DNA of 64,000 nt, taken from the IMG/VR virus record IMGVR_UViG_3300042922_000270; one strand, written 5' to 3'. This document shows, one piece after another, positions 24,649 through 59,000 of this stretch. Numbering within the stretch: the first letter of the stretch is position 1; the number at the start of each line of letters is the position of its first letter. The stretch is from a virus. Taxonomy: Duplodnaviria; Heunggongvirae; Uroviricota; Caudoviricetes. The notes beneath the pieces were generated by a model. That model was not told where the DNA came from and did not search any database. It saw nothing but the letters and a program-made list of their open reading frames with translations. A program made the translations under genes and the position numbers.

Positions 24649-24859
24649 GCGTTAGTTCCTCATGCTTGAAGTGAGCTTTTCTGTCCCCCTCAAAACATAC
24701 AGTATAATCGTATGTGTTATCGGCCTTAAAGAGATAGATTATCTCCCCAACAGGTCCTAAGTAATAAGGCTCTAGTGCTTTAGATAAGACCCCACCAGGA
24801 GTTATAGCGTGGGCAACCACCAGGTCACCCACTTGATATTTAGACTTTGAAGTATTCAT
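24632..24859 (-). CDS. small paralog-family protein
   Basis: YQVGDLVVAHAI ... EELTLVFSI. Confidence 0.6.
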   Translation of the reverse strand: MNTSKSKYQVGDLVVAHAITPGGVLSKALEPYYLGPVGEIIYLFKADNTYDYTVCFEGDRKAHFKHEELTLVFSI

Positions 24860-25559
24860 GATTGCGCCTGATCTTACCTAAGATCTCTTCAGCCTTAGTT
24901 ACGTTAGCCTTCTTACGAAGCACACTGTGTTCGTGACACTCAGCTAAGAACCTAAGTCTTAGGTCTAGAGCCCTGAGCATAGCAGTAGGGGATACTTCTC
25001 CATGCTTGATACTGAGATAGAAGTCTACATCTGAGGATGCAACCTTAGGGTTCATGACACGAGTAGTCAGAAACTTACAACCTAGGTCAACAACACGGAT
25101 AGCGTGCATGACTTCTTTGCCCGTTACTTTCTTACTATAGTCACCCATATGAATGTCTTCTAGGGTCTTACGAACCTTAGAGGCGTGTCCACGAACACAA
25201 TTAAAGTAATCATCTCTGGGAACAATATGAGGGACAACCCTCTGAATCTCATTGTAGATCTTTACGTGACCGATATGCTGTGGCTCAAAGAAGAGCATCT
25301 CAAGACATCCGTGGTTACCCTTAGAGACTAGCCTCAAGAACTTCTCAATCTCATGGAACTCAACATCAGCGGGTTCGTGTAGGCAGACAGTCTCAGCAGG
25401 TTTACTAAACCTAAAGAAGTCTACTGTAGGAGCAACATAGACTCCCTTATAGTCATAATCACTGGTCTCTGTAGCTAGACCAAACCCATGACTACCGCCA
25501 ACTCCCCAGAAGAGGATCTTGCCTGGTAGCTGGTCTTCATTGATTGGTAGTTTATCCAT
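24840..25559 (-). CDS. predicted nucleotidyltransferase (Pol-beta superfamily)
   Basis: GVGGSHGFGLATETSDYDYKGVY matches the GS..G....SD.D NTase signature near the N-terminus. Confidence 0.5.
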   Translation of the reverse strand: MDKLPINEDQLPGKILFWGVGGSHGFGLATETSDYDYKGVYVAPTVDFFRFSKPAETVCLHEPADVEFHEIEKFLRLVSKGNHGCLEMLFFEPQHIGHVKIYNEIQRVVPHIVPRDDYFNCVRGHASKVRKTLEDIHMGDYSKKVTGKEVMHAIRVVDLGCKFLTTRVMNPKVASSDVDFYLSIKHGEVSPTAMLRALDLRLRFLAECHEHSVLRKKANVTKAEEILGKIRRNHEYFKV

Positions 25560-26401: not shown

Positions 26402-26594
26402 ACATAGATGCTAGTAACATACCAGCGATGCAGATTAAGTGCAACCAGAACCGAAGTCCTGGCTGCTCAACAATCTTAGCCTCAATGGTAGGGTAGAAGA
26501 GAAGTGCTGAGACAGCACAGAAGAAAGCCACCCCGTATGACCCAAACAACAAGTTTAGGATACAGAGGACAGCCATAAGAACTGAGGAGAACAT
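26391..26594 (-). CDS. small membrane protein
   Basis: 67 aa, two hydrophobic helices. Confidence 0.4.
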   Translation of the reverse strand: MFSSVLMAVLCILNLLFGSYGVAFFCAVSALLFYPTIEAKIVEQPGLRFWLHLICIAGMLLASMYGR

Positions 26595-28837
26595 TATGTC
26601 TTTCCTTCATACTTGTTGCGGACATCTATAACAGACATCTCTTTCAGCTGCTCCGGGTCAAGCGTCTTGATAAACGCGTAGACCTGGGTGTGCTTAGGGG
26701 TATACAGTTTAGCTAGGTCAACCTTACGATTGTTAGCTACAGCATCCTTAACGGTACGAATCTGTTTCCAGAAGTTGTACCAGGGTAGCTTAATCTTCAC
26801 CATGAAGCCGGCGCTGTCTTCAATGACGTAGCCTTCTTCACGAATCATCTCATTCTCAGCATGAAGCTGGTACCACCTCAAGAAGTCCTGCCAGTTACTA
26901 ATGGTCTCGATCTTCTCCTTACAGGTGAAGCCATACCTATTAGCAGTGACCTGGGTCTCCTTGAAGTCTACCTTAGAGTAGTTCTGAGTCCTATGAACAA
27001 AGTCCAATAGGATAATCTCAGGCTTCTTGTATTCAACAATATGAGGATCGTTGACAGGCTCGATAACCTCAAACACCGCAGAGATGTTATTGGTCTTGAG
27101 CAGGTCCTTGAACTCAGTCTGAAGGTTCCAAGCTATCAGATGGTCGTTTAGCTGTTTAGTAAACCACTCAGCAAACGGACCAGTCAGACTTGTCTTGCTG
27201 GCGGTAATAACACTATCAGAAGCATTATCAAAACCTGCAAGACCTAGGAAGCCATTGGACTTAGCGTAGATCCTAATAGGGAACTGGAGAGAGTTCTCCA
27301 AGCTATGTAGCTTCGTCTCTTCTCTCTCGTTCATGTTGAAGAACTTATTGTATGACCGAATAACAATATCTTCGGTCTGAGTGTTCATGAACAACCCACG
27401 AGCTTCGATGGTAGTATCATTCCACTTCTTATCGTAAAATACATCACGAGTAAAATGAAAACTACTGATATCTCCGAACTTCTTCTCCTGAACCAACTTA
27501 CTGGATCTTAGTCTCTCCAACAGACTACTAGAAGTAGTGTCTGCATTCTGAGCCTTACCAACGGTTGCTTTAAAAGTGTTGTTCTTGATTTCGTGAGTTG
27601 TAGGAGCACCTGTTTTGTTGAATATGACGACCCTCAAGTGGCCACCGAATTCAATCTTTCCCTCTAGGTTAAATGACCTGTCCGCAGCTTGCACGGGGAA
27701 GCTTTGGATATTACGGTGTCCGTGTACCTGGTAGATATTAGATACAGGATCTTTGTCTTTAACTATAAACTGACTGATATCTGTGTATAGCTGTCCCTTG
27801 GGGGAGACCCACATGTTAGAGGTATTGTCAGTAAACAACTGATCAATATGGTCTTTGTAGTTACCTACACCCTTAACCATCTGTTCAGTAGCAATGTAGA
27901 TGAGATTCTCGGGTAGAGTGCTCAGGCCACCATGAGTGACCAGCACAGCTTTATCTCCGTGAAGGAAGTACACAATCTGTACTAGCTTACGGCTAAATTC
28001 TCTGAGTTCTTTCTTAGTGATACCCGCAGCCTCAAGCTGGGGCTGGGTGCTGTTAGTAAAGACACCACTGGTAACCGGATAGTCAAACGCATAGTTCTCG
28101 ATATGGTCATCGTGGTTACCGCGTACGAACCTAACGTTAGGCTGGTCGTACATCTTAAGTGCCCACTGAACAACCTTATCGTTTTGAATACCACGGTCTA
28201 CTAGGTCGCCTGCAAAGATATACATCTCGTTAGGGTTCTCTTTAGGATTACCATGAACATTCAAGTACTCTGAGAGGGGATCCCAGCAACCCTGAAGGTC
28301 GCCAAAGATGTGAACCTTATCGTACTGATTAAAGTCAGTGGGCTTGTAATTGAATACACTTTCCCACTCATAAGGCTTAACTACTGTAACCCAGCCGGGC
28401 ACAGGGGAGACCTTGAATCTCTCATAAGCATTGAGAATAACATTCTCAGGTACTTGCTTGTGTTCGGGTCTCAGAAGGTTCTGGACAAGAGCGGTGTCCT
28501 TATCGACATCCGAGAAGTCCAGTACGTAACATCTATAGCGGTAACGCTCACAGAGCTTCTTGTATTGGTTAATCTGATCAGCTTTCTGGTGAGTGGCATC
28601 AATAATGGTGAACTCACCCCGCTTCATGCGCTCTTCGAGAAGCTTGAATAGAAGCTCCCACACCTGTCTGTCGTGCTTCTGACTGATCTGGTACTTACCA
28701 TCGAGACCTAGCACAGGTCCCTGGTACATCATACGAATATCGTCAGCGCACAGAGCATACTGACTAAGGTTGTTATTTCTCAGAAAGGTAGACTTACCTG
28801 CGCCAGGCGCTCCACGTAACAGGACTAGTTGCTTCAT
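26594..28837 (-). CDS. Pnkp-like polynucleotide kinase-phosphatase (P-loop kinase + calcineurin-like phosphoesterase + C-terminal domain)
   Basis: N-terminal LVLLRGAPGAGKSTF P-loop; central metallophosphoesterase motifs GDLQG ... GDLVDRG ... GNHD ... THGG; about 350-aa C-terminal extension with a possible K.NG adenylyltransferase-like motif. Confidence 0.6.
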   Translation of the reverse strand: MKQLVLLRGAPGAGKSTFLRNNNLSQYALCADDIRMMYQGPVLGLDGKYQISQKHDRQVWELLFKLLEERMKRGEFTIIDATHQKADQINQYKKLCERYRYRCYVLDFSDVDKDTALVQNLLRPEHKQVPENVILNAYERFKVSPVPGWVTVVKPYEWESVFNYKPTDFNQYDKVHIFGDLQGCWDPLSEYLNVHGNPKENPNEMYIFAGDLVDRGIQNDKVVQWALKMYDQPNVRFVRGNHDDHIENYAFDYPVTSGVFTNSTQPQLEAAGITKKELREFSRKLVQIVYFLHGDKAVLVTHGGLSTLPENLIYIATEQMVKGVGNYKDHIDQLFTDNTSNMWVSPKGQLYTDISQFIVKDKDPVSNIYQVHGHRNIQSFPVQAADRSFNLEGKIEFGGHLRVVIFNKTGAPTTHEIKNNTFKATVGKAQNADTTSSSLLERLRSSKLVQEKKFGDISSFHFTRDVFYDKKWNDTTIEARGLFMNTQTEDIVIRSYNKFFNMNEREETKLHSLENSLQFPIRIYAKSNGFLGLAGFDNASDSVITASKTSLTGPFAEWFTKQLNDHLIAWNLQTEFKDLLKTNNISAVFEVIEPVNDPHIVEYKKPEIILLDFVHRTQNYSKVDFKETQVTANRYGFTCKEKIETISNWQDFLRWYQLHAENEMIREEGYVIEDSAGFMVKIKLPWYNFWKQIRTVKDAVANNRKVDLAKLYTPKHTQVYAFIKTLDPEQLKEMSVIDVRNKYEGKT

Positions 28838-38364: not shown

Positions 38365-38591
38365 TTAGTAAAGAAGAGTTCTATCTCTTCTCTCCCAAAG
38401 TAATCGGCCTCATAGTCGTTATAGTCCTTATCAAACTTTAGAAAGTACTCTAGGCCTTGACGACAGCCAAGGTCTAGATGCTCAACCTCATAGATTTTGC
38501 CTATGTGGGTGCCCTTCCAGTCGTCTCTTCCAGACCTGGGGCCATCAGATAGAACTATAACCAGATCACCAGGTTTAATGTTATTCGTCAT
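38361..38591 (-). CDS. small paralog-family protein
   Basis: IKPGDLVIVLSD ... EEIELFFTK. Confidence 0.6.
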   Translation of the reverse strand: MTNNIKPGDLVIVLSDGPRSGRDDWKGTHIGKIYEVEHLDLGCRQGLEYFLKFDKDYNDYEADYFGREEIELFFTK

Positions 38592-39804
38592 ACTTGAGGT
38601 TAAACTTAGGGCTGATAACCTTGAAGCTTACGAAGCCAGCGTTTAGATCACCCAGATCAAAATCGAACTTAGGCTCGACTAGTCTGTAGACATCACCTTC
38701 ACGCTCAGTCTTCTTGTTATGAACCGACTTACCTTCGGCCATAGCCACAAGCTCGTCCACTGTGTGATTGAGAACAAAGTCTCTATCGATGATAGGAACC
38801 ATGTTAAGGCCTAGAGCTCTAACAAGCTTCTCAGTTTCTTCAAGACTATAATAGGTAAGGCTATCCGGATCGAATGCCTGAAAGACGAATAGATCCTTCT
38901 TCTTAAAGTCATACTTGTTACCCTGAATACCGGGACCACACATCTCACCCTGAATAACCAGATTGGTTCCAAAAGGAGTGCAGAGTGACCTCATCTTAGT
39001 TTCCAGGTCCAGCTCAAGGGCTAGCTCCCAGAAGGTAGGATCAACTCCAGCATCAATGTCCACAAGAGCTAGCAGCTCGTTGAAGAACTTCTTACGAACA
39101 ATACCAGTCCACTTAGGATTGTACTTGTCCATAAAGATAGTCCACTTGTACTCAGCCATCTTAATCTTCTTACGAAGGTTAAACTTAGTACAGACCTTGG
39201 ACCACCAATCATCACCAGGACGCGCTAGCTCTAGGTTACGAGAAGCAATACCGAACTTACCATCTTTGAGGTAGGCAGTGAAGCTGGAACCGTCCATCTT
39301 CTCAGCCCTATAGAATCTATGACCTCTGTACTTCTCCAGGAGCTTCTCCAAGATCTGTACACGAGTCTCGTCAGTCTTATAGATGAACGAGGGGAAGGGC
39401 ATACCAGACTTCTTCCGGAAGACACCAGCCAACTTAGGCTGACCCTTCTGAGGCTTCTGGTAGGGCTCCCACTTCTTGATACCGATGACATCAGTCACGT
39501 CAGTACCCTCAGGGCAGCCTTGCATGTTTTTAGGTAGAATAGTTACAGGGAAGCAGATACCCTGAGAGATCTGACCACGGAGCTTAATAGTCTGGACTCT
39601 GAACTTACGCTGACGCATAAACTCAAACTCAGGCTTCTCCGGTAGGAGAGAATCGATCTCAACGTAAACACACTTATCACCAGGTTTAAACTCGTCAAGT
39701 TTTACAACTACGTTCCAACCAAGTACCCTAGCTCTCTGAATAGCATCAGCGCCCTCAATGGGCTGAATATCTTTGATAGTCTGAATAGAGGCTAGTTTTC
39801 TCAT
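38581..39804 (-). CDS. RNA ligase (ATP-dependent, Rnl-family)
   Basis: AEKMDGSSFTAY contains the nucleotidyltransferase motif I (K.DG) in an Rnl-like context; 407 aa. Confidence 0.65.
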   Translation of the reverse strand: MRKLASIQTIKDIQPIEGADAIQRARVLGWNVVVKLDEFKPGDKCVYVEIDSLLPEKPEFEFMRQRKFRVQTIKLRGQISQGICFPVTILPKNMQGCPEGTDVTDVIGIKKWEPYQKPQKGQPKLAGVFRKKSGMPFPSFIYKTDETRVQILEKLLEKYRGHRFYRAEKMDGSSFTAYLKDGKFGIASRNLELARPGDDWWSKVCTKFNLRKKIKMAEYKWTIFMDKYNPKWTGIVRKKFFNELLALVDIDAGVDPTFWELALELDLETKMRSLCTPFGTNLVIQGEMCGPGIQGNKYDFKKKDLFVFQAFDPDSLTYYSLEETEKLVRALGLNMVPIIDRDFVLNHTVDELVAMAEGKSVHNKKTEREGDVYRLVEPKFDFDLGDLNAGFVSFKVISPKFNLKYDE

Positions 39805-44575: not shown

Positions 44576-44579
44576 AAAG

Positions 44580-44652
44580 TCGGCCCTACGGGATTCGAAC
44601 CCGTGCTAAGAGTTTTAGAGACTCCTGTGCTATCCGCTAACACCAAAGGCCG
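44580..44652 (-). tRNA. tRNA with anticodon CUA (predicted amber-suppressor tRNA)
   Basis: Hand-folded cloverleaf: acceptor CGGCCUU/AGGGCCG, D-stem GUGU/GCAC, anticodon stem GGAGU/ACUCU, loop C-U-CUA-A-A, T-arm ACGGG-UUCGAAU-CCCGU, discriminator A; no encoded CCA. Confidence 0.6.
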
Positions 44653-44667
44653 ACAAACTTGTTTACG

Positions 44668-44916
44668 TTAGACTAGCCATATCTCCTCCAGATACCTATC
44701 TGTTTGTTCAGCATCAGCCATAAGCTCTGCTGCGTCTTTAAATAGGGTAATCCTGAGGACTAGGCCTCTAGTCTTGTTTAGGTTGGAGATGATGCCGTAC
44801 AGACCGCTCTTACTGATCTGTCCAGGTCTAAGCCTGTCACCCTTAATGTATTGATACGGCTGTATCCTAAGGGTACGGTCATCGGAGTTATCTATAATAT
44901 GCTGAGCAAGGGACAT
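44668..44916 (-). CDS. hypothetical protein
   Basis: 82 aa ORF. Confidence 0.4.
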   Translation of the reverse strand: MSLAQHIIDNSDDRTLRIQPYQYIKGDRLRPGQISKSGLYGIISNLNKTRGLVLRITLFKDAAELMADAEQTDRYLEEIWLV

Positions 44917-45001
44917 AGAGAACGTAGCTCTATGAATCTTCTTGTCTGAGACAATACAATAGACAATGTCACTGCTCTTACATGAACAGCTGATCTTGGG
45001 T

Positions 45002-45487
45002 TTAGGGTCCTAATGCATCATTTACCTCTTTCTGTAAATCATAGTTAAACTTAGTACTGTCGCTGAGAAGCTCTATCCCATCGAGGTTACGGGCGTAACT
45101 ATTAATGTAGTTTTGTTTACGTTGTTCCCACTGCTCGTCTGTGTAGTGAGAAAGTTGCTCTCTAGGGACAGCCAGTTGGTTTAGACAATAAGTTACACCT
45201 TCACGACATCTCTCAAGTTCTTTGAGCCTGATATTCTCGAAGATGGCCTTCTGATCCACCACACCGCTATCTAGTAGAGGTTTAGCTACCCTAAAGAGAC
45301 TGGTGTGCCCAAAGCTCTCACAGAACTCTTCTTTAATGGGCTTATCAATATTATCGTATGTTTCCCAGGTATGTCTACAACCTTGGACCATATTAGCTAT
45401 AAGCTCAGTGGTATCCTGAATAATCTTCTTGAGCTTATCAATCTCATCCTGTTGTTTCTGGATGTATGCTGCTTCAGCGTACGTCAT
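45002..45487 (-). CDS. hypothetical protein
   Basis: 161 aa ORF. Confidence 0.45.
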   Translation of the reverse strand: MTYAEAAYIQKQQDEIDKLKKIIQDTTELIANMVQGCRHTWETYDNIDKPIKEEFCESFGHTSLFRVAKPLLDSGVVDQKAIFENIRLKELERCREGVTYCLNQLAVPREQLSHYTDEQWEQRKQNYINSYARNLDGIELLSDSTKFNYDLQKEVNDALGP

Positions 45488-46190
45488 TAAAGTTCTCGTA
45501 CCACTCTACTATGGCCTCGGCGGCCCGTCTTGGGGGAAGTATGTCTTTGATACCCAGATTCCTAAGCCCAGGAGCATGATTAAGATCGCAAGCAAGTTTA
45601 ACGCCAGTAGCGCTGTCTTCAATATAATCAATGGCAAACACAGGCAGATAAGAATAGTGAGGTACTCTAGAAACATAGTTATCAATTATTTCTACCTCTG
45701 CACCAGAAGCATTAGTCATCCAGTTCTCAGGATTGATTATCTTGAGCATGAATGCATGCTTACCTATTTGTACGTATTTATAACTAGTAGCCACTGGTCC
45801 TGTGTTGATAAACATACTAGCCAGTTGATTACGAGGGTGACTAGATCCATCCCACTGCCCACCGGGTCTAGTAGGAGAAACTATATCTCTAACTTGTTGA
45901 GGAGTATAGAGTTCTTTGCCTTGGGCAGCATGTCTCCACTCTTCTGTATAGACTACCTGGCTTCTCATAGGGTACTTAGCATAAAGGGTGGCCATGGTTC
46001 CGTGGGGAACTACGGTCTCACCGAGAACATCCCTTAGTATCCTAAACTGGTCAGACTTATGAGGATAGCTAGTTTCAGGGCTGTTACCTGCTATACGCTT
46101 AAACTCAAAGTCATAATTTGTACAGTGCCTGGACTCTAACCAAATATCGTAATAGTCTATATAGTCAGTAGTTAACTTTACTTTGGTCAC
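45474..46190 (-). CDS. hypothetical protein
   Basis: 238 aa ORF. Confidence 0.45.
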   Translation of the reverse strand: MTKVKLTTDYIDYYDIWLESRHCTNYDFEFKRIAGNSPETSYPHKSDQFRILRDVLGETVVPHGTMATLYAKYPMRSQVVYTEEWRHAAQGKELYTPQQVRDIVSPTRPGGQWDGSSHPRNQLASMFINTGPVATSYKYVQIGKHAFMLKIINPENWMTNASGAEVEIIDNYVSRVPHYSYLPVFAIDYIEDSATGVKLACDLNHAPGLRNLGIKDILPPRRAAEAIVEWYENFNDVR

Positions 46191-46417
46191 TTGGAGAACA
46201 TAACCTCTAAATCTTTAAGGGGATACCAGAAGCCTTTGTTCAACTCTAGTGGGAATATATAAGCATAGTCTTCTTCAAGAACAGCATGATGCTTTCTAGT
46301 GGCCACATACTTAACTTCACAGATGGTCCCTAGCCTAAAGATAGCTAGTAACTGATAGAAGTCTGGATGATGCTGTTCGGGAATGTTAGCCAGCCTAACA
46401 AGATCACCGGGACCCAT
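46187..46417 (-). CDS. small paralog-family protein
   Basis: MGPGDLVRLANI ... KDLEVMFSK. Confidence 0.6.
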   Translation of the reverse strand: MGPGDLVRLANIPEQHHPDFYQLLAIFRLGTICEVKYVATRKHHAVLEEDYAYIFPLELNKGFWYPLKDLEVMFSK

Positions 46418-46674
46418 TATGTTGTGTACACCGGTTGAACATCATCAAAGCCAAACAACCAGTAACGGTCAGTGACTCTGGTACCATTCAGGTCGCAAGT
46501 GATGTCCTTCTGAGGGAATTCTACAACTAGTACACCCGCTGATCTGTATTCGTCATCGCCATTGACTATACGACCAATACGTCCCACCAGCTTAGTTGGA
46601 CTAGACACTAGCTTGAGTTTACCTACCTGTGTAGGAGTTCTTCTGATCATAACCTGATCATTTTCATTATACAT
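46417..46674 (-). CDS. small paralog-family protein
   Basis: NENDQVMIRRT ... DDVQPVYTT. Confidence 0.5.
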   Translation of the reverse strand: MYNENDQVMIRRTPTQVGKLKLVSSPTKLVGRIGRIVNGDDEYRSAGVLVVEFPQKDITCDLNGTRVTDRYWLFGFDDVQPVYTT

Positions 46675-46702
46675 TGTTATACCTATAGAGAAATATAATA
46701 AG

Positions 46703-46774
<72 letters not shown>

Positions 46775-46786
46775 CAAGAGAAGCCC

Positions 46787-48301
46787 CTACTGGGGCTTCT
46801 TAGTTAGAACAAACTCTTCAGCCTGCTCTACTGTTGAGATTAGACCATCTACAACTAGCTGCTTCATTTCCTTCATGACAGCACCTAGCTCAACACCAGG
46901 CTTCATGCCTAGCATCTTAGCTACTTGGTTACCATCAATAGGAGTCTTCACAGCCTCACCAATCAACTTGGACGTATCCAACTGACTGATCATCACTTCT
47001 AGTTTAGCAAAGCCTTCTACGTCTCTGTAGGCCTCACTATGTGCAAGCCGATCAGAAACCATAAGTTGGATATGCTCTTTCCAGAGGTGGCCCATCTTGT
47101 TGACGAACCTTCTTACATTGCGTATGTTCCACTCGCCATGGGCATAGTTAACATGTTCGCCAACCATCATGGTGATGTCTGTGATGTCTTCACCAGAGAA
47201 CTTGAGTCTCCTCAAGATCTTCTCGGTCATGTCTGCTCCCCAGTAGTCATGCTTCAAGAAGGACTTACCCTCACGAAGAGCCCATGAGCCACAAGTCGGA
47301 CACTCTATCTTGTCTACCTTATCGTACACATCACCAGGAAGCTTAGACTTGTAGTCACACCTGTCTTCTATGCACTTGTATCTGATTTGGAACGAAGTCG
47401 GTTTAGCGACGTCGTGAAGGAGGCAAGCGAGAACGACTCTATAGCTAGCACCGAGATCAACAGCATTTTCCACTGCCAGGAGGGTATGCTCCCAAAGAGG
47501 CAGATGATGATGGTAATTATCTTGATCATAGCCAAGCTGCGATACAAGTTCAGGTATAATGTGAGTGATAACTCCATCTTCCATCATCTCCCTAAAGGCA
47601 AGCGCCGCAGTACGAGTTCCAGCAATCTGCACGAGTTCGTCATGGATACGTTCCCATGAGATCTCTTTGAGATAGGGAGCCCATTGTCTGATGGCTGGAC
47701 GGATGTTATCATCAAAGACAAAGCCAAGTCTGTGTTTGAAACGATACGCCCGAAGGATCCTGAGGGGATCGTCCGAGAACGAGGTTGATGCATCGATAGG
47801 GGTTCTGAGTAGTCCCACCGAGCTTGGTCTGTCCAAACAGGAGTACCCTTCCAGACTAGTACTGTCACTGATATTCACCTCGGCGTAGTAATTGTAAGTG
47901 GGGTCCCAGCACAGGTAAGCTGCAATGGCATTACAAGTGAAGTCTCTACGCACTAGGTCATCACTGAGATTCTTGCTGAAGTTGACCTTGGGTCTACGAT
48001 TGCCACGTTCGTAGCTTTCGTTGGCCCTGAAGGTAGTGATCTCTAGTTGTTCACCTTTGTAGATACAATGTACCGTACCGTAGTTACCACCGTTCTTTTC
48101 AACAATGGAAGCACCTAGCTTCTTCATGATTTTGGTGATAACCTCAGGCTCTGCGTCGGTAGCAAAGTCGAAGTCTTTCGGTTCACGATTAAGAATCATA
48201 TCTCTGACACAGCCACCTACCAACCACAGTTCATGGTTGCCGAAGGCCTTAACGAGTGGAAACAGGGTCTCCAACTTATCGTGGAATAGCTGGGTGCGCA
48301 T
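46787..48301 (-). CDS. cca: tRNA nucleotidyltransferase (CCA-adding enzyme) with HD domain
   Basis: LWLVGGCVRDMILNREPKDFDFATDA (GG.VRD ... D.D head domain) and a LLHDVAKP HD motif. Confidence 0.8.
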   Translation of the reverse strand: MRTQLFHDKLETLFPLVKAFGNHELWLVGGCVRDMILNREPKDFDFATDAEPEVITKIMKKLGASIVEKNGGNYGTVHCIYKGEQLEITTFRANESYERGNRRPKVNFSKNLSDDLVRRDFTCNAIAAYLCWDPTYNYYAEVNISDSTSLEGYSCLDRPSSVGLLRTPIDASTSFSDDPLRILRAYRFKHRLGFVFDDNIRPAIRQWAPYLKEISWERIHDELVQIAGTRTAALAFREMMEDGVITHIIPELVSQLGYDQDNYHHHLPLWEHTLLAVENAVDLGASYRVVLACLLHDVAKPTSFQIRYKCIEDRCDYKSKLPGDVYDKVDKIECPTCGSWALREGKSFLKHDYWGADMTEKILRRLKFSGEDITDITMMVGEHVNYAHGEWNIRNVRRFVNKMGHLWKEHIQLMVSDRLAHSEAYRDVEGFAKLEVMISQLDTSKLIGEAVKTPIDGNQVAKMLGMKPGVELGAVMKEMKQLVVDGLISTVEQAEEFVLTKKPQ

Positions 48302-48311
48302 GAGTACCTTC

Positions 48312-48581
48312 CTATACCGTAAATATTATATCTATATCTTCTTCTCTGACGCCCCGTGTGGTTCTATCGTTTAGCTTTACCGAATACCAGAATTCCATTC
48401 CTGGATACTGGTGCGCATAGTCTTCACCTGCTGTGGGTACAACTTGTATGATCTCAGCTATTTTATTAGCCCATACCTCATAGAAGCCATCACCAGGACG
48501 AGCTAAGACCTTATCAGTCCATAAGAAGACATCTTTGACTACTACTAAATCTCCGACTGAGTATTTTGGTGTATTTTCCAT
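48312..48581 (-). CDS. small paralog-family protein
   Basis: YSVGDLVVVKDV ... EDIDIIFTV. Confidence 0.6.
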   Translation of the reverse strand: MENTPKYSVGDLVVVKDVFLWTDKVLARPGDGFYEVWANKIAEIIQVVPTAGEDYAHQYPGMEFWYSVKLNDRTTRGVREEDIDIIFTV

Positions 48582-48583
48582 AG

Positions 48584-48656
48584 CGGCCCCACCAGGACTC
48601 GAACCTGGGACAAAGGTTTAGGAAACCTCCGTTATATCCATCTTAACTATGAGGCC
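48584..48656 (-). tRNA. tRNA-Arg (CCU), tentative anticodon
   Basis: Acceptor GGCCUCA/UGGGGCC, D-stem GUUA/UAAC, anticodon stem GAGGU/ACCUU with loop UUCCUAA, T-loop UUCGAGU. Confidence 0.6.
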
Positions 48657-48665
48657 ATTGTGGGG

Positions 48666-49004
48666 CTAGTGCCCCGTGTTGTGGTGAGGGTCAGGACAGC
48701 GACAACGCACACCCTTATCCTCAGTCTTAGGCTTCTTTGACTCTTCGTAAGCAGCATTGGCACTAGCCAAAGTCTTAGGGTCAATCTTAGCCAAAGCCTT
48801 CTGCTTCTCGTGATCGATGGCAATGTAGAACATGATCTCATCTCTCACAAGAGAATCAATCATTAGAGGCTTGAGGGCCTCCATAATCACAGAGCCATTG
48901 ATACGACTCTCAATCTCAGGACGCTTGGTTTCAGCAAAGGCTTTGGCCTCGGCAACAACCTTAGGGTCTAGAGTCTCAAGTAGCTGGTCCAATGTTTTGA
49001 GCAT
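48666..49004 (-). CDS. hypothetical protein
   Basis: Trimmed to the internal ATG (MLKTLDQLLE...) to minimise overlap with the NADAR gene. Confidence 0.4.
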   Translation of the reverse strand: MLKTLDQLLETLDPKVVAEAKAFAETKRPEIESRINGSVIMEALKPLMIDSLVRDEIMFYIAIDHEKQKALAKIDPKTLASANAAYEESKKPKTEDKGVRCRCPDPHHNTGH

Positions 49005-49470
49005 TGCGTAGTTCCTCTCGAACTTGCATGAGGGCCTTGCCAAGAAGGTTACGCCCAGCTTTGTCACACTTAGGCAAGCGACCACAGTAGCAGTCACCCC
49101 AGATATTATCGTGATGGTAGTTACCCTCAATAAGGATAGCATCACCGGTACCCAAGAGAATCTCTCTTAGGTCAGCATGTTGACTGAACTTAGCTCTTAC
49201 AAGCTCAACCATAAGGTCGTACTTGATATCTTCCCAATCAGGCCTGAACGACTTAATGATCCCTCGGGGACCACCCATCCTCTTAGCCTTACCAGGTGTC
49301 TCAGCCAACATGATTTGAGCAAACTCTTTAGGGTCCGAAGATTTAAGAGCTTGGTACGGGTGCTCAAGGGTCTTACACTTCATGCCCCTGTAAGTAAACT
49401 CTCTTTCAAAGAAGTTACTAAAGCATTCGTACTTACCCGTGAACCTGTCTATTACTGCTACTGTAGCCAT
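48976..49470 (-). CDS. NADAR (YbiA-like, DUF1768) domain protein
   Basis: YECFSNFFEREFTYRGMKCKTLEHPYQALK matches the NADAR signature (F.SNF ... E..YQA.K); start trimmed to MATVAVIDRF. Confidence 0.7.
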   Translation of the reverse strand: MATVAVIDRFTGKYECFSNFFEREFTYRGMKCKTLEHPYQALKSSDPKEFAQIMLAETPGKAKRMGGPRGIIKSFRPDWEDIKYDLMVELVRAKFSQHADLREILLGTGDAILIEGNYHHDNIWGDCYCGRLPKCDKAGRNLLGKALMQVREELRNAQNIGPAT

Positions 49471-49493
49471 TATTACCTCTATTATTATATTAC

Positions 49494-49569
49494 TGGCCCT
49501 GGAGGGATTCGAACCCTCAACCTCTCCCGGCATAAACCAGTGAGTGCTCTACCATTGAGCTACAGAACC
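49494..49569 (-). tRNA. tRNA, anticodon arm not resolvable by hand (possibly non-canonical loop)
   Basis: Good acceptor (GGUUCUG/CAGGGCC), D-arm GCUC-AAUGGUA-GAGC and T-arm GAGGG-UUCGAAU-CCCUC; the interior CUCACUGGUUUAUGCCGGGAGAGG does not give a standard 5-bp stem with 7-nt loop. Confidence 0.55.
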
Positions 49570-49864
49570 AAGTGAGGCTGAATACACAGCCTGGCGCACA
49601 TCCCTAGGTCTATCAGGAAACCACCTGTAAAGCGTTGGTCCAGGATTTAATTACCTGTTAGCTATTACGTCTGCTTCTCTTCTAGCCTTATGTTTGATGC
49701 TTTACCTCTGATCTTTGATCTCTTATCTTTCCTCGGCAACAAATCCCCCGAAAAGGTGGAGGAATACGTTAGATTGATAAATCCAAAATCAATGTAATGC
49801 TTCATAAGGTTGAAACGGACCTTCCCGAGTTCGAGATGTTCGTGCACCCAGCCTCAAAAGTTGT

Positions 49865-50542
49865 TTAGTTGAACTTTAGCAGTTCATCCGGAATCTCGAT
49901 CTGAGTCGAGGTGTTAGCCTCAGACAGAACGAAGTCCAGAGTGGTCTCCAGCTCAACCTGCTCGTCAGTATAGTTCTTCACTACCTCACGAAGGTTGAGG
50001 GGATCGAGCAGAGCAGGCTGATACATGCTCTTGAGGTTCTTAGCCACAAGCTCGAGCTGTTCCTGCTTCACCTGTTGACCATTGCTGGCCAAGGCATTCT
50101 GCTGGTTCTCGATCTGCTGGTTCACCGCAAACTCAGCATTCTCGTATTCACGAGTAGCGAGACTGAGGCGCTGCTCCAGCTTGGTAAGTAGGGTTCTGCG
50201 GTTACCACGAACCTTGCAGTCCTTCAGACCAAGCGACTGACGGAGATACACAGCCTCAGCCAGAGTCATGACGGTACCACGAACGGTAACGTTAGTCTCC
50301 AAGTTAGCCTTCTGAATGGCGAACTTGAGCTGTGCACGACGAGCAATGAGGTCATTGACCTGTTGGAACTCAGCTTGGATGTCCTTAGCCTGCTCGTCAG
50401 CAGTCTTGTACTTCTTGGTGACAGGGGACTTTTGATCTCCGATGGTCAGTCCGATGAGCTGGAGGTTGGCAATGGCCTTCTCGATACGGTCATCGAGGCT
50501 CTTGGCTACGGTCATTGCGCGGGTGATTGATACTTTTGACAT
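49865..50542 (-). CDS. coiled-coil hypothetical protein
   Basis: 225 aa; Gln/Glu/Leu-rich heptad-like sequence; GC-rich. Confidence 0.45.
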   Translation of the reverse strand: MSKVSITRAMTVAKSLDDRIEKAIANLQLIGLTIGDQKSPVTKKYKTADEQAKDIQAEFQQVNDLIARRAQLKFAIQKANLETNVTVRGTVMTLAEAVYLRQSLGLKDCKVRGNRRTLLTKLEQRLSLATREYENAEFAVNQQIENQQNALASNGQQVKQEQLELVAKNLKSMYQPALLDPLNLREVVKNYTDEQVELETTLDFVLSEANTSTQIEIPDELLKFN

Positions 50543-50594
50543 TGTTCTCTTCTTTTAGGTTTTAATAGACGTATACTGTCTCTGAATAGTTAAG

Positions 50595-50667
50595 TGGGCT
50601 AAGAGGGATTCGAACCCCCGACTCTCTGCTTAAGAGGCAGATACTCTACCAACTGAGTTATTAGCCC
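50595..50667 (-). tRNA. tRNA-Lys (CUU)
   Basis: Acceptor GGGCUAA/UUAGCCC, D-stem ACUC/GAGU, anticodon stem UCUGC/GCAGA with loop CUCUUAA, T-loop UUCGAAU. Confidence 0.7.
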
Positions 50668-50676
50668 TAACCTAGA

Positions 50677-51213
50677 CTAAATGATTAGTCCAAGCGCTTC
50701 AATACCATCAGCATGACCTTTGGCTGCATCATTGTATGCATCCCCAGCTAGGTGCTTGAACAACTTAGCATGGTAGGTCTCATCCTTCAGGATATTGATA
50801 AATGTTTCTCTGATGTCCCACGGAGCGGTTACATCATCAGCAATTACTTTGATACGCTCTAGACGCATCTCTTCAGCATGGGCAGCAATGCCACATGCTT
50901 CTTGGTAGGATAGCTCTGAGTTACCCAGAACAGCCTCCCAGTAACGATCAGAGCTAGCGCTCTCCGTAGGAACCGGAATCTGCCTGACAATCAGAAGATC
51001 CTTAATCCAGTCAGCATGAACATCTTCTTCATACATGACCCGCTCGATGGATTTCTGGTCGATGTAGTTAGGAGCATGTGCCAGAATGTACTGCTTGATG
51101 CGGTCAGAAGCTGACAACTCTCCAGAGTACTGCTGGGTGAGCCAGTGACGGAGAGCTGAGTTATCGCTCTTAACGCCATCCCACCACTGCTGTGAAGTCT
51201 TCTTTGGAATCAT
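50677..51213 (-). CDS. hypothetical protein, possible ferritin-like diiron fold
   Basis: Three E..H spacings (EDVH, HAEEMRLE, ETYH) in a predicted helical protein; weak. Confidence 0.3.
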   Translation of the reverse strand: MIPKKTSQQWWDGVKSDNSALRHWLTQQYSGELSASDRIKQYILAHAPNYIDQKSIERVMYEEDVHADWIKDLLIVRQIPVPTESASSDRYWEAVLGNSELSYQEACGIAAHAEEMRLERIKVIADDVTAPWDIRETFINILKDETYHAKLFKHLAGDAYNDAAKGHADGIEALGLII

Positions 51214-51446
51214 TGTGTGAACATTACCTCTACTTCTGAAGGCTTGAGGACCATACCGGCATCATCACCAGTAACAATCCAATACTTCCAGTCCTCACCG
51301 GACTCACTATCTGTCTCGTAAACTCTAATATCCTTGACTTCAAAGATCTTACCTACATAACTTGCTTTGAAGTAGGCCAGTTCTTCGTTATCAAACCAGG
51401 GATCACTAACATCTTTGACTACAACTAGGTCACCCTGGTTTATCAT
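51210..51446 (-). CDS. small paralog-family protein
   Basis: MINQGDLVVVKDV ... SEVEVMFTQ. Confidence 0.6.
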   Translation of the reverse strand: MINQGDLVVVKDVSDPWFDNEELAYFKASYVGKIFEVKDIRVYETDSESGEDWKYWIVTGDDAGMVLKPSEVEVMFTQ

Positions 51447-51727
51447 TACTTCTTCTTTTTGGTCTTAGGGGCAGGTTTCTCTTCTGCCTTCTTAGAGGTG
51501 ATCTCGACGTAAGCCCCATCTACGAGCTTCTCGACCTTGATGGTCTGATTACCGAAGATGGTTCTAATGTTCTCCTTAAAGAAGCCATTCTCGTGAAGGA
51601 GAACCGTAGCTTCAGAACCAGCAGTGATGTGGTCCAGAGCAAACACTTCTACTTCCTGATTGAGACTGTCATCCAGGGGTTTGAAGTCCTTATCAAAGAA
51701 CTTCTTAGTTACTCTGAACTGTTCCAC
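51446..51727 (-). CDS. hypothetical protein with Lys-rich tail
   Basis: 93 aa, ends KPAPKTKKKK. Confidence 0.4.
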   Translation of the reverse strand: MEQFRVTKKFFDKDFKPLDDSLNQEVEVFALDHITAGSEATVLLHENGFFKENIRTIFGNQTIKVEKLVDGAYVEITSKKAEEKPAPKTKKKK

Positions 51728-52075
51728 TTACATCACCCATCCTATCGATAAGACAAACCTAACACCTTCGGTCACCAACGTAACCTCATGCTCATGGATG
51801 TCTGGCCTGAACACTTGCATGAAGGGCAAGTCTACTATCTTGGGTCCATAGCACTCAAAGTGGCCACCACGCTTGGCTTTCCACAAGAAGATATTACACC
51901 TATAGTGTTTCTCTCCTGGTTGGACTGTATCGACGTGCTTCTTAACAAAGCTACCGATAGGCCACTTAAGAAGGTACACATCTATAAACTTAATCTTACC
52001 TAGAGGCTTGCCCCTAAAGTACAGGAGCTTCTTGAGGTAGCCACTATTCTGTCTACCCGCTTCCCATTTAATCAT
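51728..52075 (-). CDS. hypothetical protein
   Basis: 115 aa ORF. Confidence 0.4.
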   Translation of the reverse strand: MIKWEAGRQNSGYLKKLLYFRGKPLGKIKFIDVYLLKWPIGSFVKKHVDTVQPGEKHYRCNIFLWKAKRGGHFECYGPKIVDLPFMQVFRPDIHEHEVTLVTEGVRFVLSIGWVM

Positions 52076-52089
52076 ACAACTCTTTCTAT

Positions 52090-52191
52090 GAGGGACAGTG
52101 GGATTCGAACCACACTACAGCCTAGGCCGGTACCAGCCCTTGCTTACGTTTATTCACAACGCATACGGACACCATTCCGTAGAGGTCCCTC
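52090..52191 (-). ncRNA. atypical ~100-nt tRNA-like element (tRNA with large insertion, or pseudogene)
   Basis: Perfect 7-bp acceptor GAGGGAC/GUCCCUC and GGUUCGAAUCC T-loop box, but about 100 nt long with extra internal hairpins (ACGGA-AUGGUG-UCCGU; UGCGUU-GUGAAUA-AACGUA; GGCUGG-UA-CCGGCC) and a poorly paired T-stem. Confidence 0.45.
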
Positions 52192-52197
52192 GGGAAC

Positions 52198-52488
52198 TTA
52201 CTTGACCCAGAACATCCACTTAGGGACTTTGGGCTTACTGAGTTCATGTGCTCTGACATTGTCCTGCAACTTAGTCACCAGGTCCCAGTCAGTATCGGAT
52301 CTTGCTAGAAGAGCATCAACAGGCTTCTGTAACTCGGTGTGAGTATCCTTCCACTCTTTGAGGGCCTTAACACCGAACTTACGATCGATGAAGGACTTCA
52401 CTGTGAAGAAGAGCATCGTGAAGAGACTTCCAAAGAACAGGACCTCGAATAAGATCAGTAAGCATCTCAGTAGCATTACTAGAAACAT
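52198..52488 (-). CDS. small membrane protein
   Basis: 96 aa, N-terminal transmembrane helices. Confidence 0.4.
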   Translation of the reverse strand: MFLVMLLRCLLILFEVLFFGSLFTMLFFTVKSFIDRKFGVKALKEWKDTHTELQKPVDALLARSDTDWDLVTKLQDNVRAHELSKPKVPKWMFWVK

Positions 52489-52489
52489 C

Positions 52490-52816
52490 TTACTTTCTCC
52501 TCTGGAAGATCAGCCAGTCGTTGTCTTTGAGACCCTTGAATTCCCAGCCGTCGTTACCATAACGTTCTATGGTAACCCACCACTGACCTTCATCAGTAGT
52601 ACTGGATTGCACCCAGGAGGTCTCGAAGGTGGCCCCAAGCTGCACATGAGAATTACCTGTGGTAGCTCTATGAACAGATGTCGTGTCCTTAAGATGAACA
52701 ACCAATATGGTTGAAAACACCATAGCAAGGACCAGTACTGAGATCATCAGGATCTTGTTCTTGGTGTAGGTGTTAAGATTGGAGATCCCCGAAAGGATCT
52801 CCTTTAGCTTACCCAA
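52490..52816 (-). CDS. membrane-anchored protein, possible NfeD-like partner of the SPFH protein
   Basis: 108 aa; N-terminal TM helix plus beta-rich C-terminus; immediately downstream of and co-oriented with the SPFH gene. Confidence 0.35.
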   Translation of the reverse strand: MGKLKEILSGISNLNTYTKNKILMISVLVLAMVFSTILVVHLKDTTSVHRATTGNSHVQLGATFETSWVQSSTTDEGQWWVTIERYGNDGWEFKGLKDNDWLIFQRRK

Positions 52817-53737
52817 CTACTCAGCCTTGGTAGCGCCCACGGTCTTACCGAGAGCACCAGCATCGATAATCGAACCACTGGGGACGATGATCAAATTGGC
52901 AGCGTTGATGATGGCGTTGGCCGTGATCTTGGCCTTCTCCAACTCGGTGTACTGAGTGGGCGACAGACCAATGGCCGAACGAGCGTTGGCCTCACCCTTG
53001 GCACGGATGAACTTGGCATCGGCTTCAGCCTTGGCCTCGATCTTGACCTTCTCAGCAGCCATCTTGGACTTCTCCAATTCCTGCTTGGCCGACAAGGTCT
53101 CCTGCTCGATCTGAGCCTTACGCTCCACCGCAGTCTTGATGGCCTCGGGTAAGTTGATGTCCGAGATGGCCACAGTTTCGACAATAGTGAAGTCGTCACC
53201 GATGCCGTCGATCTTGACGTCCTGGTTCTTAAGGCCGGCCTGCAAGATGCGGTTCATCTCGGCAGCAGCCTTAGCACCACGCGACTGATACAGGTCGATC
53301 ACGCCGTACTTCGAGAACGAGTAGCCAGCGACCTGCTGAATCACAGGGATCCAACGAGTCTGAATCAGGCCGCTGTCGCCGCCGAAGGCCTTGCGGTACT
53401 TCTTGAACAACTCAGCGGGGCGGGTGCTCGACTCACCGAAATCGGTCCTGTACTGGACTCGAACGTCAACGGTCAGCTCTTGACCTTCACGAGTGTTGAC
53501 TCGGAAGTTGTCGAGGTTGATGTTGTCGACGACACCGGCAGGGTACTCGTAGACATTCTTGAAGAAACCGACGAGGTGCATGCCAGGAGGCAGGGGCTTC
53601 TCATCGATGTGACCACTGACAGTATCAGTCACCACACCCACAGAACCAGGTTCGATGGAGGCACAGCCCTGAACAACAGGCATCACCGCCAAGGCCAAAA
53701 CAGCCAAAGCACTCACTAGAAGTCGCTTGAGATTCAC
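52817..53737 (-). CDS. SPFH/band-7 (stomatin/prohibitin/HflK/C-like) domain lipoprotein
   Basis: SPFH-like core (NTREGQELTVDVRVQYR ... IQTRWIPVIQQVAGYSF ... coiled-coil AKQELEKSKMAAEKVK) with N-terminal signal/lipobox LAVMPVVQGC; start reassigned to the GTG at 53737 preceded by AAAGGA; GC-rich. Confidence 0.6.
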   Translation of the reverse strand: MNLKRLLVSALAVLALAVMPVVQGCASIEPGSVGVVTDTVSGHIDEKPLPPGMHLVGFFKNVYEYPAGVVDNINLDNFRVNTREGQELTVDVRVQYRTDFGESSTRPAELFKKYRKAFGGDSGLIQTRWIPVIQQVAGYSFSKYGVIDLYQSRGAKAAAEMNRILQAGLKNQDVKIDGIGDDFTIVETVAISDINLPEAIKTAVERKAQIEQETLSAKQELEKSKMAAEKVKIEAKAEADAKFIRAKGEANARSAIGLSPTQYTELEKAKITANAIINAANLIIVPSGSIIDAGALGKTVGATKAE

Positions 53738-53902
53738 TAAGGATTCCTTTCTTGTACCAGCGTAACTAAAAGCTGGATCAGGCAACTGATAAGAGCCAGT
53801 GTAAGCACGGCTCCACCAATCAGTACCAGGTAGGGAGTACACGGATCTGACGCTAAGAATGTCCCAATAGAGGGGCTCTCGAAGAATGCAGCATTCATAG
53901 GA

Positions 53903-54166
53903 TTAAAGCTTCATCTTAATGGTTTGGATAAACAAAGTAATCATCTGCCAGATCTTTCTCTCAAGATCCTTTATAAAGGCATGTTTCTGAGCCTTGAACT
54001 CTTCTTGTTCTTTCTCGATCACAGCCTTACCGGCTAGTTCAACTTCTCTAAATACTTCACGAGCCTGACCGACAGCATCTTTAGTCTGTTCGGTAATCTT
54101 CTCTGCCTGAGCTTTACGTTGGAGCAGAGCTTCGTGCTGCTCGATAATACCTTTTTCGTCTAACAA
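53903..54166 (-). CDS. coiled-coil hypothetical protein
   Basis: 87 aa. Confidence 0.4.
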   Translation of the reverse strand: MLDEKGIIEQHEALLQRKAQAEKITEQTKDAVGQAREVFREVELAGKAVIEKEQEEFKAQKHAFIKDLERKIWQMITLFIQTIKMKL

Positions 54167-54198
54167 CGTTATAACCTTTCGAATGTGTAATAACTAAG

Positions 54199-54276
54199 TG
54201 GAGATGACGGGAATTGAACCCGTGTGCGTACAAGTTCCACTGTGGGCTTTAATGTACGACGAAACCAACCATCCCC
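54199..54276 (-). ncRNA. atypical tRNA-like element (78 nt)
   Basis: Acceptor GGGGAUG/CAUCUCC and T-arm ACGGG-UUCAAUU-CCCGU are fine, but the interior forms a long GUACA...UGUAC stem enclosing 20 nt instead of canonical D and anticodon arms. Confidence 0.45.
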
Positions 54277-54283
54277 AAATTTA

Positions 54284-54502
54284 TCATGAGTGACAGTTTT
54301 TACACTTCACTCGACCATTATATGTGTCTGTAACATGCTTCCAGGTAACACTATCTGTAATCTTTCCACAGAAGGTCATGTTAGAGATGCCACTCTTGGC
54401 TATGTGAACTATTTTAGTTCCAGGCTCTAGAATGGCACTCTGACAGACTCTGTATTTCTTTGGCTTCTTCTTACTCATAGACCAAGAAGTTCTCATCAGC
54501 AA
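54284..54502 (-). CDS. Zn-ribbon small protein
   Basis: 72 aa; C..C ... C..C. Confidence 0.4.
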   Translation of the reverse strand: MLMRTSWSMSKKKPKKYRVCQSAILEPGTKIVHIAKSGISNMTFCGKITDSVTWKHVTDTYNGRVKCKNCHS

Positions 54503-54842
54503 GTATCTGCTGACAATCTCTTTTATGTTGCAGATACCTGTCTAGGACACCTTGAATGTTCTTAGCACCAACAGGGTTAGCGCTGTGAACGTTGAAGCTG
54601 AAGTTATCAGGGAACGTATGGGTACCGTTAAGATCCTGCTCGATTAGCCAGTTAGCAAAGTAGTGCCCAGTCTTGATCTCACCCAGGTCATGGTCAAAAC
54701 CAATAAAGTCAGGCATACCGTTAGTAAGCACAAACATCTCTGCCTGATCTGAGTTGCGAGCAACAAGCATCATACTACCCAGTTCTTGACCATAGGTCTT
54801 GATAGGGTCTCGTTCATCATCTAGAAACAGATTCCAACTCAT
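54471..54842 (-). CDS. hypothetical protein
   Basis: 123 aa ORF. Confidence 0.4.
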
Positions 54843-55393: not shown

Positions 55394-55396
55394 TAA

Positions 55397-55947: not shown

Positions 55948-55962
55948 AATACTCTTTCATAG

Positions 55963-56033: not shown

Positions 56034-56039
56034 AGTTTA

Positions 56040-57364: not shown

Positions 57365-57376
57365 ATCAATGTTCCT

Positions 57377-58696: not shown

Positions 58697-58714
58697 GATG
58701 GCCCTTTCTATAGG

Positions 58715-58797: not shown

Positions 58798-58805
58798 CAT
58801 GTAAT

Positions 58806-58991: not shown

Positions 58992-59000
58992 AGATTGACC

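Follow-up and report, generated by a model that had tools for sequence, protein, structure and literature searches.

The IMG/VR virus record IMGVR_UViG_3300042922_000270 represents an uncultured phage (Caudoviricetes) with a genome of approximately 208 kb, and the window considered here is a stretch of 64,000 nucleotides of that genome. The window has a guanine-plus-cytosine content of about 45%, approximately 91% of its length is coding on the minus strand, and it reads as one co-directional gene block. Within the block is a gene for a protein of 747 amino acids (aa) in which a kinase, a metallophosphoesterase and an RNA ligase module follow one another in a single polypeptide. A preliminary description of the same DNA had given this protein an RNA end-healing identity, which the present analysis supports. 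The gene and its three modules are as follows.

26594..28837, minus strand, stop codon included: predicted trifunctional RNA repair protein of 747 aa (kinase, metallophosphoesterase and ligase), from the open reading frame, Pfam, PHROG and AlphaFold2
28358..28837, minus strand: P-loop polynucleotide 5′-kinase module, residues 1-160, from motifs and Pfam
27563..28345, minus strand: binuclear metallophosphoesterase module, residues 165-425, from motifs and Pfam
26597..27520, minus strand: Trl1-like (Rnl1/Rnl6 superclade) ATP-dependent RNA ligase module, residues 440-747, from Pfam, profile searches and Foldseek

Gene model and catalytic residues of the 747-aa protein

The open reading frame (ORF) at 26594..28837 stays open for 747 codons. 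Its translation carries all of the motifs quoted in the preliminary description: a P-loop, GAPGAGKS, at residues 9-16, followed by GDLQG (179-183), GDLVDRG (210-216), GNHD (240-243) and THGG (301-304). The start that yields 747 aa is correct, because 79 homologues align from residue 1 and a protein of this length is also called in an independently assembled version of this phage. In the public JGI gene call the protein begins only at Met36 and has 712 aa; the P-loop is thereby lost (residues 1-35, 28733-28837, minus strand), an annotation error that would conceal the kinase. Eight small ORFs that flank the gene gave no match in Pfam and PHROG scans.

Three Pfam domains were recognized in the protein, with scores far above chance level: AAA_33 at residues 4-141 (8.7e-16), Metallophos at residues 174-319 (6.4e-14) and RNA_lig_T4_1 (PF09511) at residues 478-687 (5.8e-41). 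The last of these matches takes in the whole profile (positions 1-227 of 227) and brings with it a full set of nucleotidyltransferase motifs, which settles the earlier suggestion that the long C-terminal region be searched for a ligase-like fold. The order of kinase, metallophosphoesterase and third domain proposed at that time, with a phosphatase that is not of the HAD type, is likewise borne out. PHROG 8238 ('RNA ligase') covers the protein from end to end (4.9e-223). An AlphaFold2 model built from 76 sequences has a predicted local distance difference test score of 93.4 and a predicted template modelling score of 0.80, and only the linker at residues 427-436 is disordered.

Conservation of catalytic residues was assessed in an alignment of 80 homologues sharing 35-54% identity with the 747-aa protein. 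In the kinase module, residues G14, K15, D32, R35 and R123 are invariant. The spacing from Lys to Asp to Arg is that of polynucleotide kinases. The general base of CthPnk is Asp38 (PMC3902929).

In the central module, whose best structural match is the CthPnkp RNA repair phosphatase, the candidate active site comprises D180, Q182, D211, R215, N241, H242, H302 and H374. Residues D180, D211, R215, N241, H242, H302, H372 and H374 are invariant. Set against the Pnkp ligand series (D-H, D, R, N-H, H, H), the protein has Gln in place of the motif I His. Most homologues have His at this position (105 of 120, with Gln in the other 15 and no third residue), and the change between His and Gln has occurred at least eight times on a neighbour-joining tree. 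The proposals that the switch is confined to a single clade or tied to another site were rejected, given this number of switches and the lack of any strongly covarying column. Candidates for the equivalent of CthPnkp Asp392 are N390 and E392; an alignment with a phosphoesterase-only profile is not significant in this region.

Ligase module and relation to known repair systems

When the family profile was compared with PDB sequences, it matched Trl1-LIG at 3.9e-32, 4j6o at 3e-13, 4gp7 at 5.4e-12 and T4 Rnl1 at 9.7e-12, and Foldseek agreed with this search. The top structural matches of the ligase module are Trl1 and T4 Rnl1, and the Pnkp ligase domain is not in the lists. With the family profile, the module aligns end to end with the Trl1-LIG domains of Chaetomium and Candida glabrata. 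Its invariant residues in the 80 homologues are R480, K498, K526-x-N528-G529 (motif I), E590 (motif III), E668-G669 (motif IV) and K681-x-K683 (motif V). The correspondences with Chaetomium Trl1-LIG are listed here, with the family of the 747-aa protein given first.

K526 / N528: K148 / N150
E590: E218
H599: His227
E668: E300
K681 / K683: K323 / K325
K691-x-x-R694: Arg334-x-x-Arg337
last helix, 'iielRkkF': 'iikLRndF'

After the adenylyltransferase domain the protein has the short helical C-terminal module that is distinctive of the Trl1-LIG, or Rnl6, clade. In Chaetomium Trl1-LIG, residues His227, Arg334 and Arg337 bind a sulfate ion taken as a mimic of a 2′-phosphate, and this triad has been reported to occur in no clade other than that of Trl1 (PMC6379707). 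Changing these residues to Ala slows RNA adenylylation 60- to 420-fold (PMC11404444). The triad confers a strong but not absolute preference for 2′-phosphate ends, of which T4 Rnl1 joins none (PMC12440814). Among the 80 homologues H599 and R694 are present in every sequence. Position 691 holds Lys in 79 sequences and Arg in the remaining one, the first Arg of the Trl1 triad being conservatively replaced by Lys. The ligase domain is thus of the Trl1/Rnl1 type, with a conserved pocket that is predicted to accommodate a 2′-phosphate. No paper on a phage or bacterial member of the Rnl6/Trl1 clade was found in the literature searched.

To our knowledge, three designs for the healing and sealing of RNA have been characterized: T4 Pnkp with Rnl1, bacterial Pnkp-Hen1 and eukaryal Trl1. 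The preliminary description had likened the 747-aa protein to bacterial Pnkp. The two do share an N-terminal P-loop 5′-kinase and the order of kinase, metallophosphoesterase and third domain, but the likeness stops short of membership. TIGR04075, the model for bacterial Pnkp, has a cut-off of 750 bits, whereas the protein reaches 61.7 bits and is aligned over residues 3-306 only; as judged by this model, the protein is not a bacterial Pnkp and its membership is excluded. It also differs in having a ligase of the Trl1/Rnl1 type (PF09511), a Gln at motif I and no Hen1 partner that we could find, and in belonging to a family carried by phages and prophages. The Pnkp ligase seals only when the N-terminal half of Hen1 is present (PMC3675462). 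The 747-aa protein, in contrast, would not need Hen1, because its ligase domain is of the Trl1/Rnl1 type. In agreement with the preliminary description, no Hen1-like or methyltransferase domain appeared among the Pfam hits of the genes called at 1-49.8 kb of the window, nor in the larger ORFs scanned beyond. Nor is Hen1 annotated within the inspected 6-8 kb on each side of homologues in four sequenced phages, of Bacillus, Staphylococcus, Fusobacterium and Brochothrix.

The pairing of T4 Pnkp with Rnl1 is the classic system for repair of tRNAs cut in the anticodon loop by PrrC. Two proteins in T4 correspond to one polypeptide here, and the phosphatase of T4 Pnkp is a DxDxT/HAD enzyme, whereas that of the 747-aa protein is a metallophosphoesterase. 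Motifs I, III, IV and V of the Rnl1 family (PF09511) and the Rnl1-type N-terminal sub-module are all present. The C-terminal tRNA-specificity domain of T4 Rnl1, however, is not aligned to the protein, as the PDB alignment ends at residue 253. A survey of jumbo phages describes a few RNA repair sets in which calcineurin-like phosphatases stand in place of HAD phosphatases (PMC7824862).

For the sealing half, the nearest known system is Trl1-LIG of fungi and plants (Rnl6 clade; PDB 6N0T, 6N67, 8RBJ and 9QW7). The Trl1 holoenzyme is arranged as LIG-KIN-CPD with a 2H cyclic phosphodiesterase, whereas the phage protein is arranged as KIN-metallophosphoesterase-LIG and its Pfam result contains no 2H domain. 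The predicted enzyme is a mosaic, in which a healing half nearest to that of bacterial Pnkp and a sealing half nearest to the fungal tRNA-splicing ligase Trl1 are joined in one polypeptide that would act independently of Hen1.

This architecture is not confined to the present phage. More than 2200 proteins have the same three domains. A search with only the ligase domain retrieves 591 representative clusters at E <= 1e-30, the majority of which are 710-800 aa in length and carry the ligase at the C-terminus. Full-length homologues occur in 113 phage records, and the carriers, many of which are Firmicute phages, include SPbeta-like Bacillus phages, phages of Alicyclobacillus and Fusobacterium, Brochothrix phage A9 and many Staphylococcus Twort-like phages. 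Their GenBank labels range from 'RNA ligase', 'tRNA ligase' and 'polynucleotide kinase' to 'putative phosphodiesterase' and 'hypothetical'. Homologues longer than 900 aa contain inteins or homing endonucleases within the same three domains, and the possibility that their extra length represents further repair domains such as KptA was rejected. In some homologues (P0156, P0227 and P0265) the phosphoesterase region is split by HNH/NUMOD, LAGLIDADG or intein domains. In Herelleviridae (Staphylococcus phage Clo6, 2649-5965; Brochothrix phage A9, 3418-5834) the homologue lies directly downstream of genes for ribose-phosphate pyrophosphokinase and nicotinamide phosphoribosyltransferase, and the RNA repair enzyme thus adjoins an NAD salvage pair. 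The literature searched held no paper that characterizes the kinase-metallophosphoesterase-Rnl1 fusion; the survey of Burroughs and Aravind (2016), which possibly lists the architecture, lay outside that search. The 747-aa protein is a further member of a catalogued family, which brings known modules together in a way that is new with respect to the characterized systems.

Candidate partner genes, tRNA array and genomic context

Several other features of the window bear on RNA repair or on the supply of tRNA.

24840..25559, minus strand: RlaP-family Pol-beta nucleotidyltransferase, 239 aa, from PF10127, PHROG 388 and synteny
38581..39804, minus strand: Rnl5-type RNA ligase, 407 aa, with OB and nucleotidyltransferase domains and motif I KMDGSS, from Pfam and the match to NgrRnl
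46787..48301, minus strand: class II tRNA nucleotidyltransferase with HD domain, 504 aa, from Pfam and PDB matches
44579..63962, minus strand: 14 predicted tRNA genes in an array, all of them lacking an encoded 3′ CCA, from ARAGORN and the 3′ flanks

The gene for the RlaP protein, which the preliminary description overlooked, is located 1 kb and four small ORFs downstream of the gene for the 747-aa protein. Its product matches PF10127 at 1.1e-16 (61.8 bits against a cut-off of 23) and PHROG 388 at 6.9e-29. In the closest relative of the 747-aa protein (54% identity, from two other metagenomes) the RlaP gene lies 0.7 kb downstream, and the gene order is kept: HAD, PRTase_3, trifunctional enzyme, three small ORFs, RlaP, DHHA1 and ThyA. 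RlaP adds one or two nucleoside monophosphates to damaged RNA 3′-OH ends, whereby over-damaged tRNA is functional again in vitro, and it has been proposed as a counter to base-excising nucleases (PMC12776372). The RlaP protein of the window is probably the partner by which lost 3′ nucleotides are put back. A gene for a DHH/DHHA1 phosphoesterase (22413-23453, minus strand) lies 1.4 kb downstream of that for RlaP, and the closest related phage has it at the corresponding place. That phage also has a GmrSD-type (type IV restriction-like) gene directly upstream of the homologue (3722-5524), which is not found at the corresponding position of the window.

The 407-aa protein matches PF21189 (1e-33) and PF09414 (8.2e-19) in Pfam, which correspond to a PHA02142 OB domain and an RNA_ligase domain. 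It scores 148 bits with TIGR02306, just below the cut-off of 151.15. The match to Naegleria Rnl5 (NgrRnl, 5cot), at 6e-54, falls into two stretches and takes in both the OB and the adenylyltransferase module. An N-terminal OB domain followed by an adenylyltransferase domain is likewise the arrangement of the Rnl5 enzymes DraRnl (Deinococcus) and NgrRnl, the latter with KLDGSS at motif I rather than KMDGSS. NgrRnl lacks an insert of about 80 aa that separates the two adenylyltransferase halves of the phage protein (residues 198-278, 38971-39213, minus strand). Rnl5 enzymes seal nicks in duplexes (PMC7261155, PMC1807946). Since this is the activity of the Rnl5 type, the 407-aa protein is predicted to be a separate, non-redundant, nick-sealing ligase and not the sealing step of the kinase-phosphatase. 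Because the C-terminal domain of the 747-aa protein is itself a complete ligase, sealing would occur in cis. The preliminary description had made its reading depend on nucleotidyltransferase motifs in both proteins, and both have the full set. It had also proposed that the 407-aa ligase and the 504-aa enzyme complete a pathway begun by the kinase-phosphatase. Both proteins exist, but the 407-aa protein does not complete it, the 747-aa protein already having a ligase.

The 504-aa protein contains PolyA_pol (3.7e-30), PolyA_pol_RNAbd (9.8e-11) and HD (2.9e-07) domains, and its best PDB matches are 3wfo, which we take to be the Aquifex A-adding enzyme, and 1miv. Specificity for CCA is at most putative for this protein, because all of the NCBIfam CCA models fall below their cut-offs (at best 272 against 438.8). 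The gene is flanked by tRNA genes at 46702-46774 and 48583-48656. Given that none of the 14 tRNA genes encodes CCA and that the enzyme is encoded inside their array, a role in maturation is at least as likely as one in repair, and the enzyme is probably needed for the former as much as for the latter. The nucleotidyltransferase and HD domains of the CCA-repair enzyme first described are confirmed; tRNA maturation would suffice to explain its presence, and a part in CCA repair may come in addition. The HD region has a Cys-rich insert with four Cys residues (CIEDRC ... CPTC, residues ~301-334, 47300-47400, minus strand), which may be a zinc-binding element.

The large tRNA set noted previously is confirmed by ARAGORN, and its 14 genes are co-directional with the repair genes. 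Rfam supports 11 of them. The three calls below the Rfam gathering score are Trp (55962-56033), an 89-nucleotide 'tRNA-???' with a two-base anticodon (57956-58044) and Ser-GCU (60713-60795, minus strand). Genes for Lys(UUU), Arg and Asp tRNAs, which are known target classes of ribotoxins, are included. A tRNA with a CUA anticodon (44579-44652, minus strand), labelled 'Pyl' by ARAGORN, could be an amber suppressor. TAG is still the stop codon of 20 of the 118 minus-strand ORFs in the window, and there is accordingly no sign of recoding in the gene block. An 81-nucleotide match to the Rfam model of transfer-messenger RNA (tmRNA) at 54196-54276 (minus strand; 56 bits, with the gathering score at 47) was not called by ARAGORN, and since so short a match spans positions 1-374 of the model, only the tRNA-like ends can be present. 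The same region encodes an elongation factor Ts homologue (56040-56909, minus strand; PF00889, 5.3e-45) and an RNase T / Rv2179c-like 3′-5′ exoribonuclease (54839-55393, minus strand).

In the wider window, the repair genes are spread across 23 kb with about 50 other genes among them, many of which have no known role. The phage has no close DNA relative: megablast with window segments of 3.5 kb and 25 kb gave no match in 50,697 phage records, and the best matches of its DNA polymerase are from cyanophages, at only about 26% identity. Between the two RNA ligase genes is a tellurite-resistance-type cluster (30606-34854 and 41492-42250, minus strand) with PRTase_3, a HAD hydrolase, TerC/DUF475, two TerD genes and a vWA-TerF-like gene. 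The closest related phage likewise has the HAD and PRTase_3 pair upstream of its homologue. Genes for a Macro-domain protein (3876-4493, minus strand) and a NADAR-domain protein (48976-49533, minus strand) are present as well, the latter inside the tRNA array and adjoining the nucleotidyltransferase gene.

Proposed pathway, alternatives and implications

The 747-aa protein is probably a self-contained enzyme for the healing and sealing of RNA that operates without Hen1, and its most likely role would be the repair of tRNAs that defence nucleases of the host have cleaved. Its activities, its tRNA substrate, its cooperation with other gene products and the state of the 2′ end that it would seal are predictions drawn from the domain identities, folds and conserved catalytic residues observed. 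The N-terminal kinase would phosphorylate the 5′-OH end, with D32 as general base and with K15 and R123 binding the nucleoside triphosphate. The central, Mn-type binuclear phosphoesterase would open the 2′,3′-cyclic phosphate and then remove it to leave a 3′-OH; CthPnkp and lambda phosphatase, which have the same fold, both hydrolyse 2′,3′-cyclic phosphates (PMC2190708). The C-terminal ligase would become adenylylated on K526, transfer adenosine monophosphate to the 5′-phosphate and join the ends. Where the nuclease has also excised a base, RlaP may add back one or two nucleotides. The Rnl5 ligase would separately seal nicks in duplex regions, and the tRNA nucleotidyltransferase would chiefly provide phage tRNAs with CCA and may also restore damaged 3′ ends.

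Several points weigh against this proposal. No measured activity was found for any member of the family in the literature searched. The repair genes are dispersed over 23 kb among unrelated genes and do not form a tight operon; that they serve a single coordinated pathway is something we infer. No RlaP gene adjoins the homologues in SPbeta-like phages and Herelleviridae. Finally, the motif I metal ligand is Gln (Q182) and not His, and the corresponding H189Q variant of CthPnkp is without ribonucleotide phosphomonoesterase and has a reduced diesterase, below that of the Ala mutant (PMC3675462, PMC2190708).

An alternative that we consider unlikely is that the phosphoesterase is mainly a cyclic phosphodiesterase that yields 3′-OH,2′-phosphate ends, the ligase prefers or requires the 2′-phosphate, and the resulting junction needs a host Tpt1/KptA or persists. 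Such a route would fit a ligase domain that aligns end to end with Trl1-LIG and keeps the residues that enforce or favour a 2′-phosphate end, H599, K691, R694 and N528 (equivalent to Asn150) (PMC6379707, PMC11404444, PMC12440814). It would also fit the presence of Gln at the equivalent of CthPnkp His189, a position that has switched repeatedly in the family. His189 is a metal ligand that is needed for the phosphomonoesterase and dispensable for the Mn-dependent diesterase; the products of the H189D variant are 2′-phosphates only, which yeast Trl1 is able to seal, whereas T4 Rnl1 readily joins the ends that the wild-type enzyme has healed (PMC2190708, PMC1920235, PMC3675462). The Macro and NADAR genes in the window point the same way, as these families have been linked to the processing of ADP-ribose or Tpt1 by-products (PMC9503650).

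On the other side, most homologues have His at motif I, yet His-type and Gln-type proteins share the ligase triad, and in CthPnkp Gln leaves less diesterase activity than Ala does. The linked RlaP makes 2′-OH,3′-OH ends, which would have to be a substrate of the ligase (PMC12776372), and Chaetomium Trl1-LIG itself prefers a 2′-phosphate with no absolute requirement for it (PMC12440814). No Tpt1/KptA was detected in the window, either by tblastn with E. coli KptA (best E value 0.1) or as PF01885 among the Pfam hits. KptA occurs in 98 phage records, mostly of Erwinia, Dickeya, Klebsiella and Serratia (most of those listed being 250-300 kb) and of Clostridioides (~130 kb). The genera of these phages barely overlap those of the carriers of the 747-aa family, with Bacillus alone in both genus-level tallies. 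The kptA neighbourhood of phage phiCD211 contains no linked Trl1-like ligase. It is doubtful that the family is the first counterpart in the prokaryotic world of the eukaryal Trl1 pathway, with a metallophosphoesterase that feeds 3′-OH,2′-phosphate ends to an Rnl6-type ligase whose His-Lys-Arg pocket would recognize the 2′-phosphate.

It is improbable that the genes form no single pathway and that the 747-aa protein does not repair tRNA, acting instead as a lambda-type protein phosphatase or Ap4A hydrolase or on other ends (mRNA, rRNA or DNA breaks), with the tRNA genes and the nucleotidyltransferase serving translation supply only. The dispersal of the genes would be expected under this explanation, the CCA-less tRNA genes alone account for the nucleotidyltransferase, and the homologues of SPbeta-like temperate phages lie outside tRNA-rich settings. 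In thousands of proteins, however, the phosphoesterase is always fused between a P-loop domain of polynucleotide kinase type and an RNA ligase, its top structural match is an RNA repair phosphatase, and ligases of the Rnl1 and Trl1 types act on single-stranded RNA ends (PMC6379707, PMC12440814). We give hardly any credence to a bacterial Pnkp-type arrangement, in which the ligase only self-adenylylates and depends on a Hen1-like activator and methyltransferase elsewhere in the 208-kb genome, for although the domain order is identical, the modules of CthPnkp are those that the kinase and phosphatase most resemble and only 64 kb of the genome is visible, both the TIGR04075 result and the flanks of the homologues described above count against it.

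Repair of tRNA by phages is a familiar theme, and the sequences considered here were already public; the mosaic of Pnkp and Trl1 and the question of the 2′-phosphate were not found in the literature searched. What this analysis adds is the Trl1-like nature of the third domain, the exclusion of the protein from bacterial Pnkp, the RlaP partner and a new reading of what the second ligase and the nucleotidyltransferase would do. We know of no bacterial substrate for the bacterial Tpt1/KptA enzymes. These are present, and unexplained, in taxa without Trl1-type splicing (PMC6097658, PMC6573784). The conserved Trl1-type pocket bears on whether RNA junctions with a 2′-phosphate arise in bacteria. Should the family prove to be a Trl1 counterpart, such junctions would form in bacterial cells and would be a natural source of substrate for Tpt1/KptA. 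The family also bears on how many Gram-positive phages, among them the Staphylococcus Twort-like phages that are used in therapy, may escape defences that cleave tRNA.

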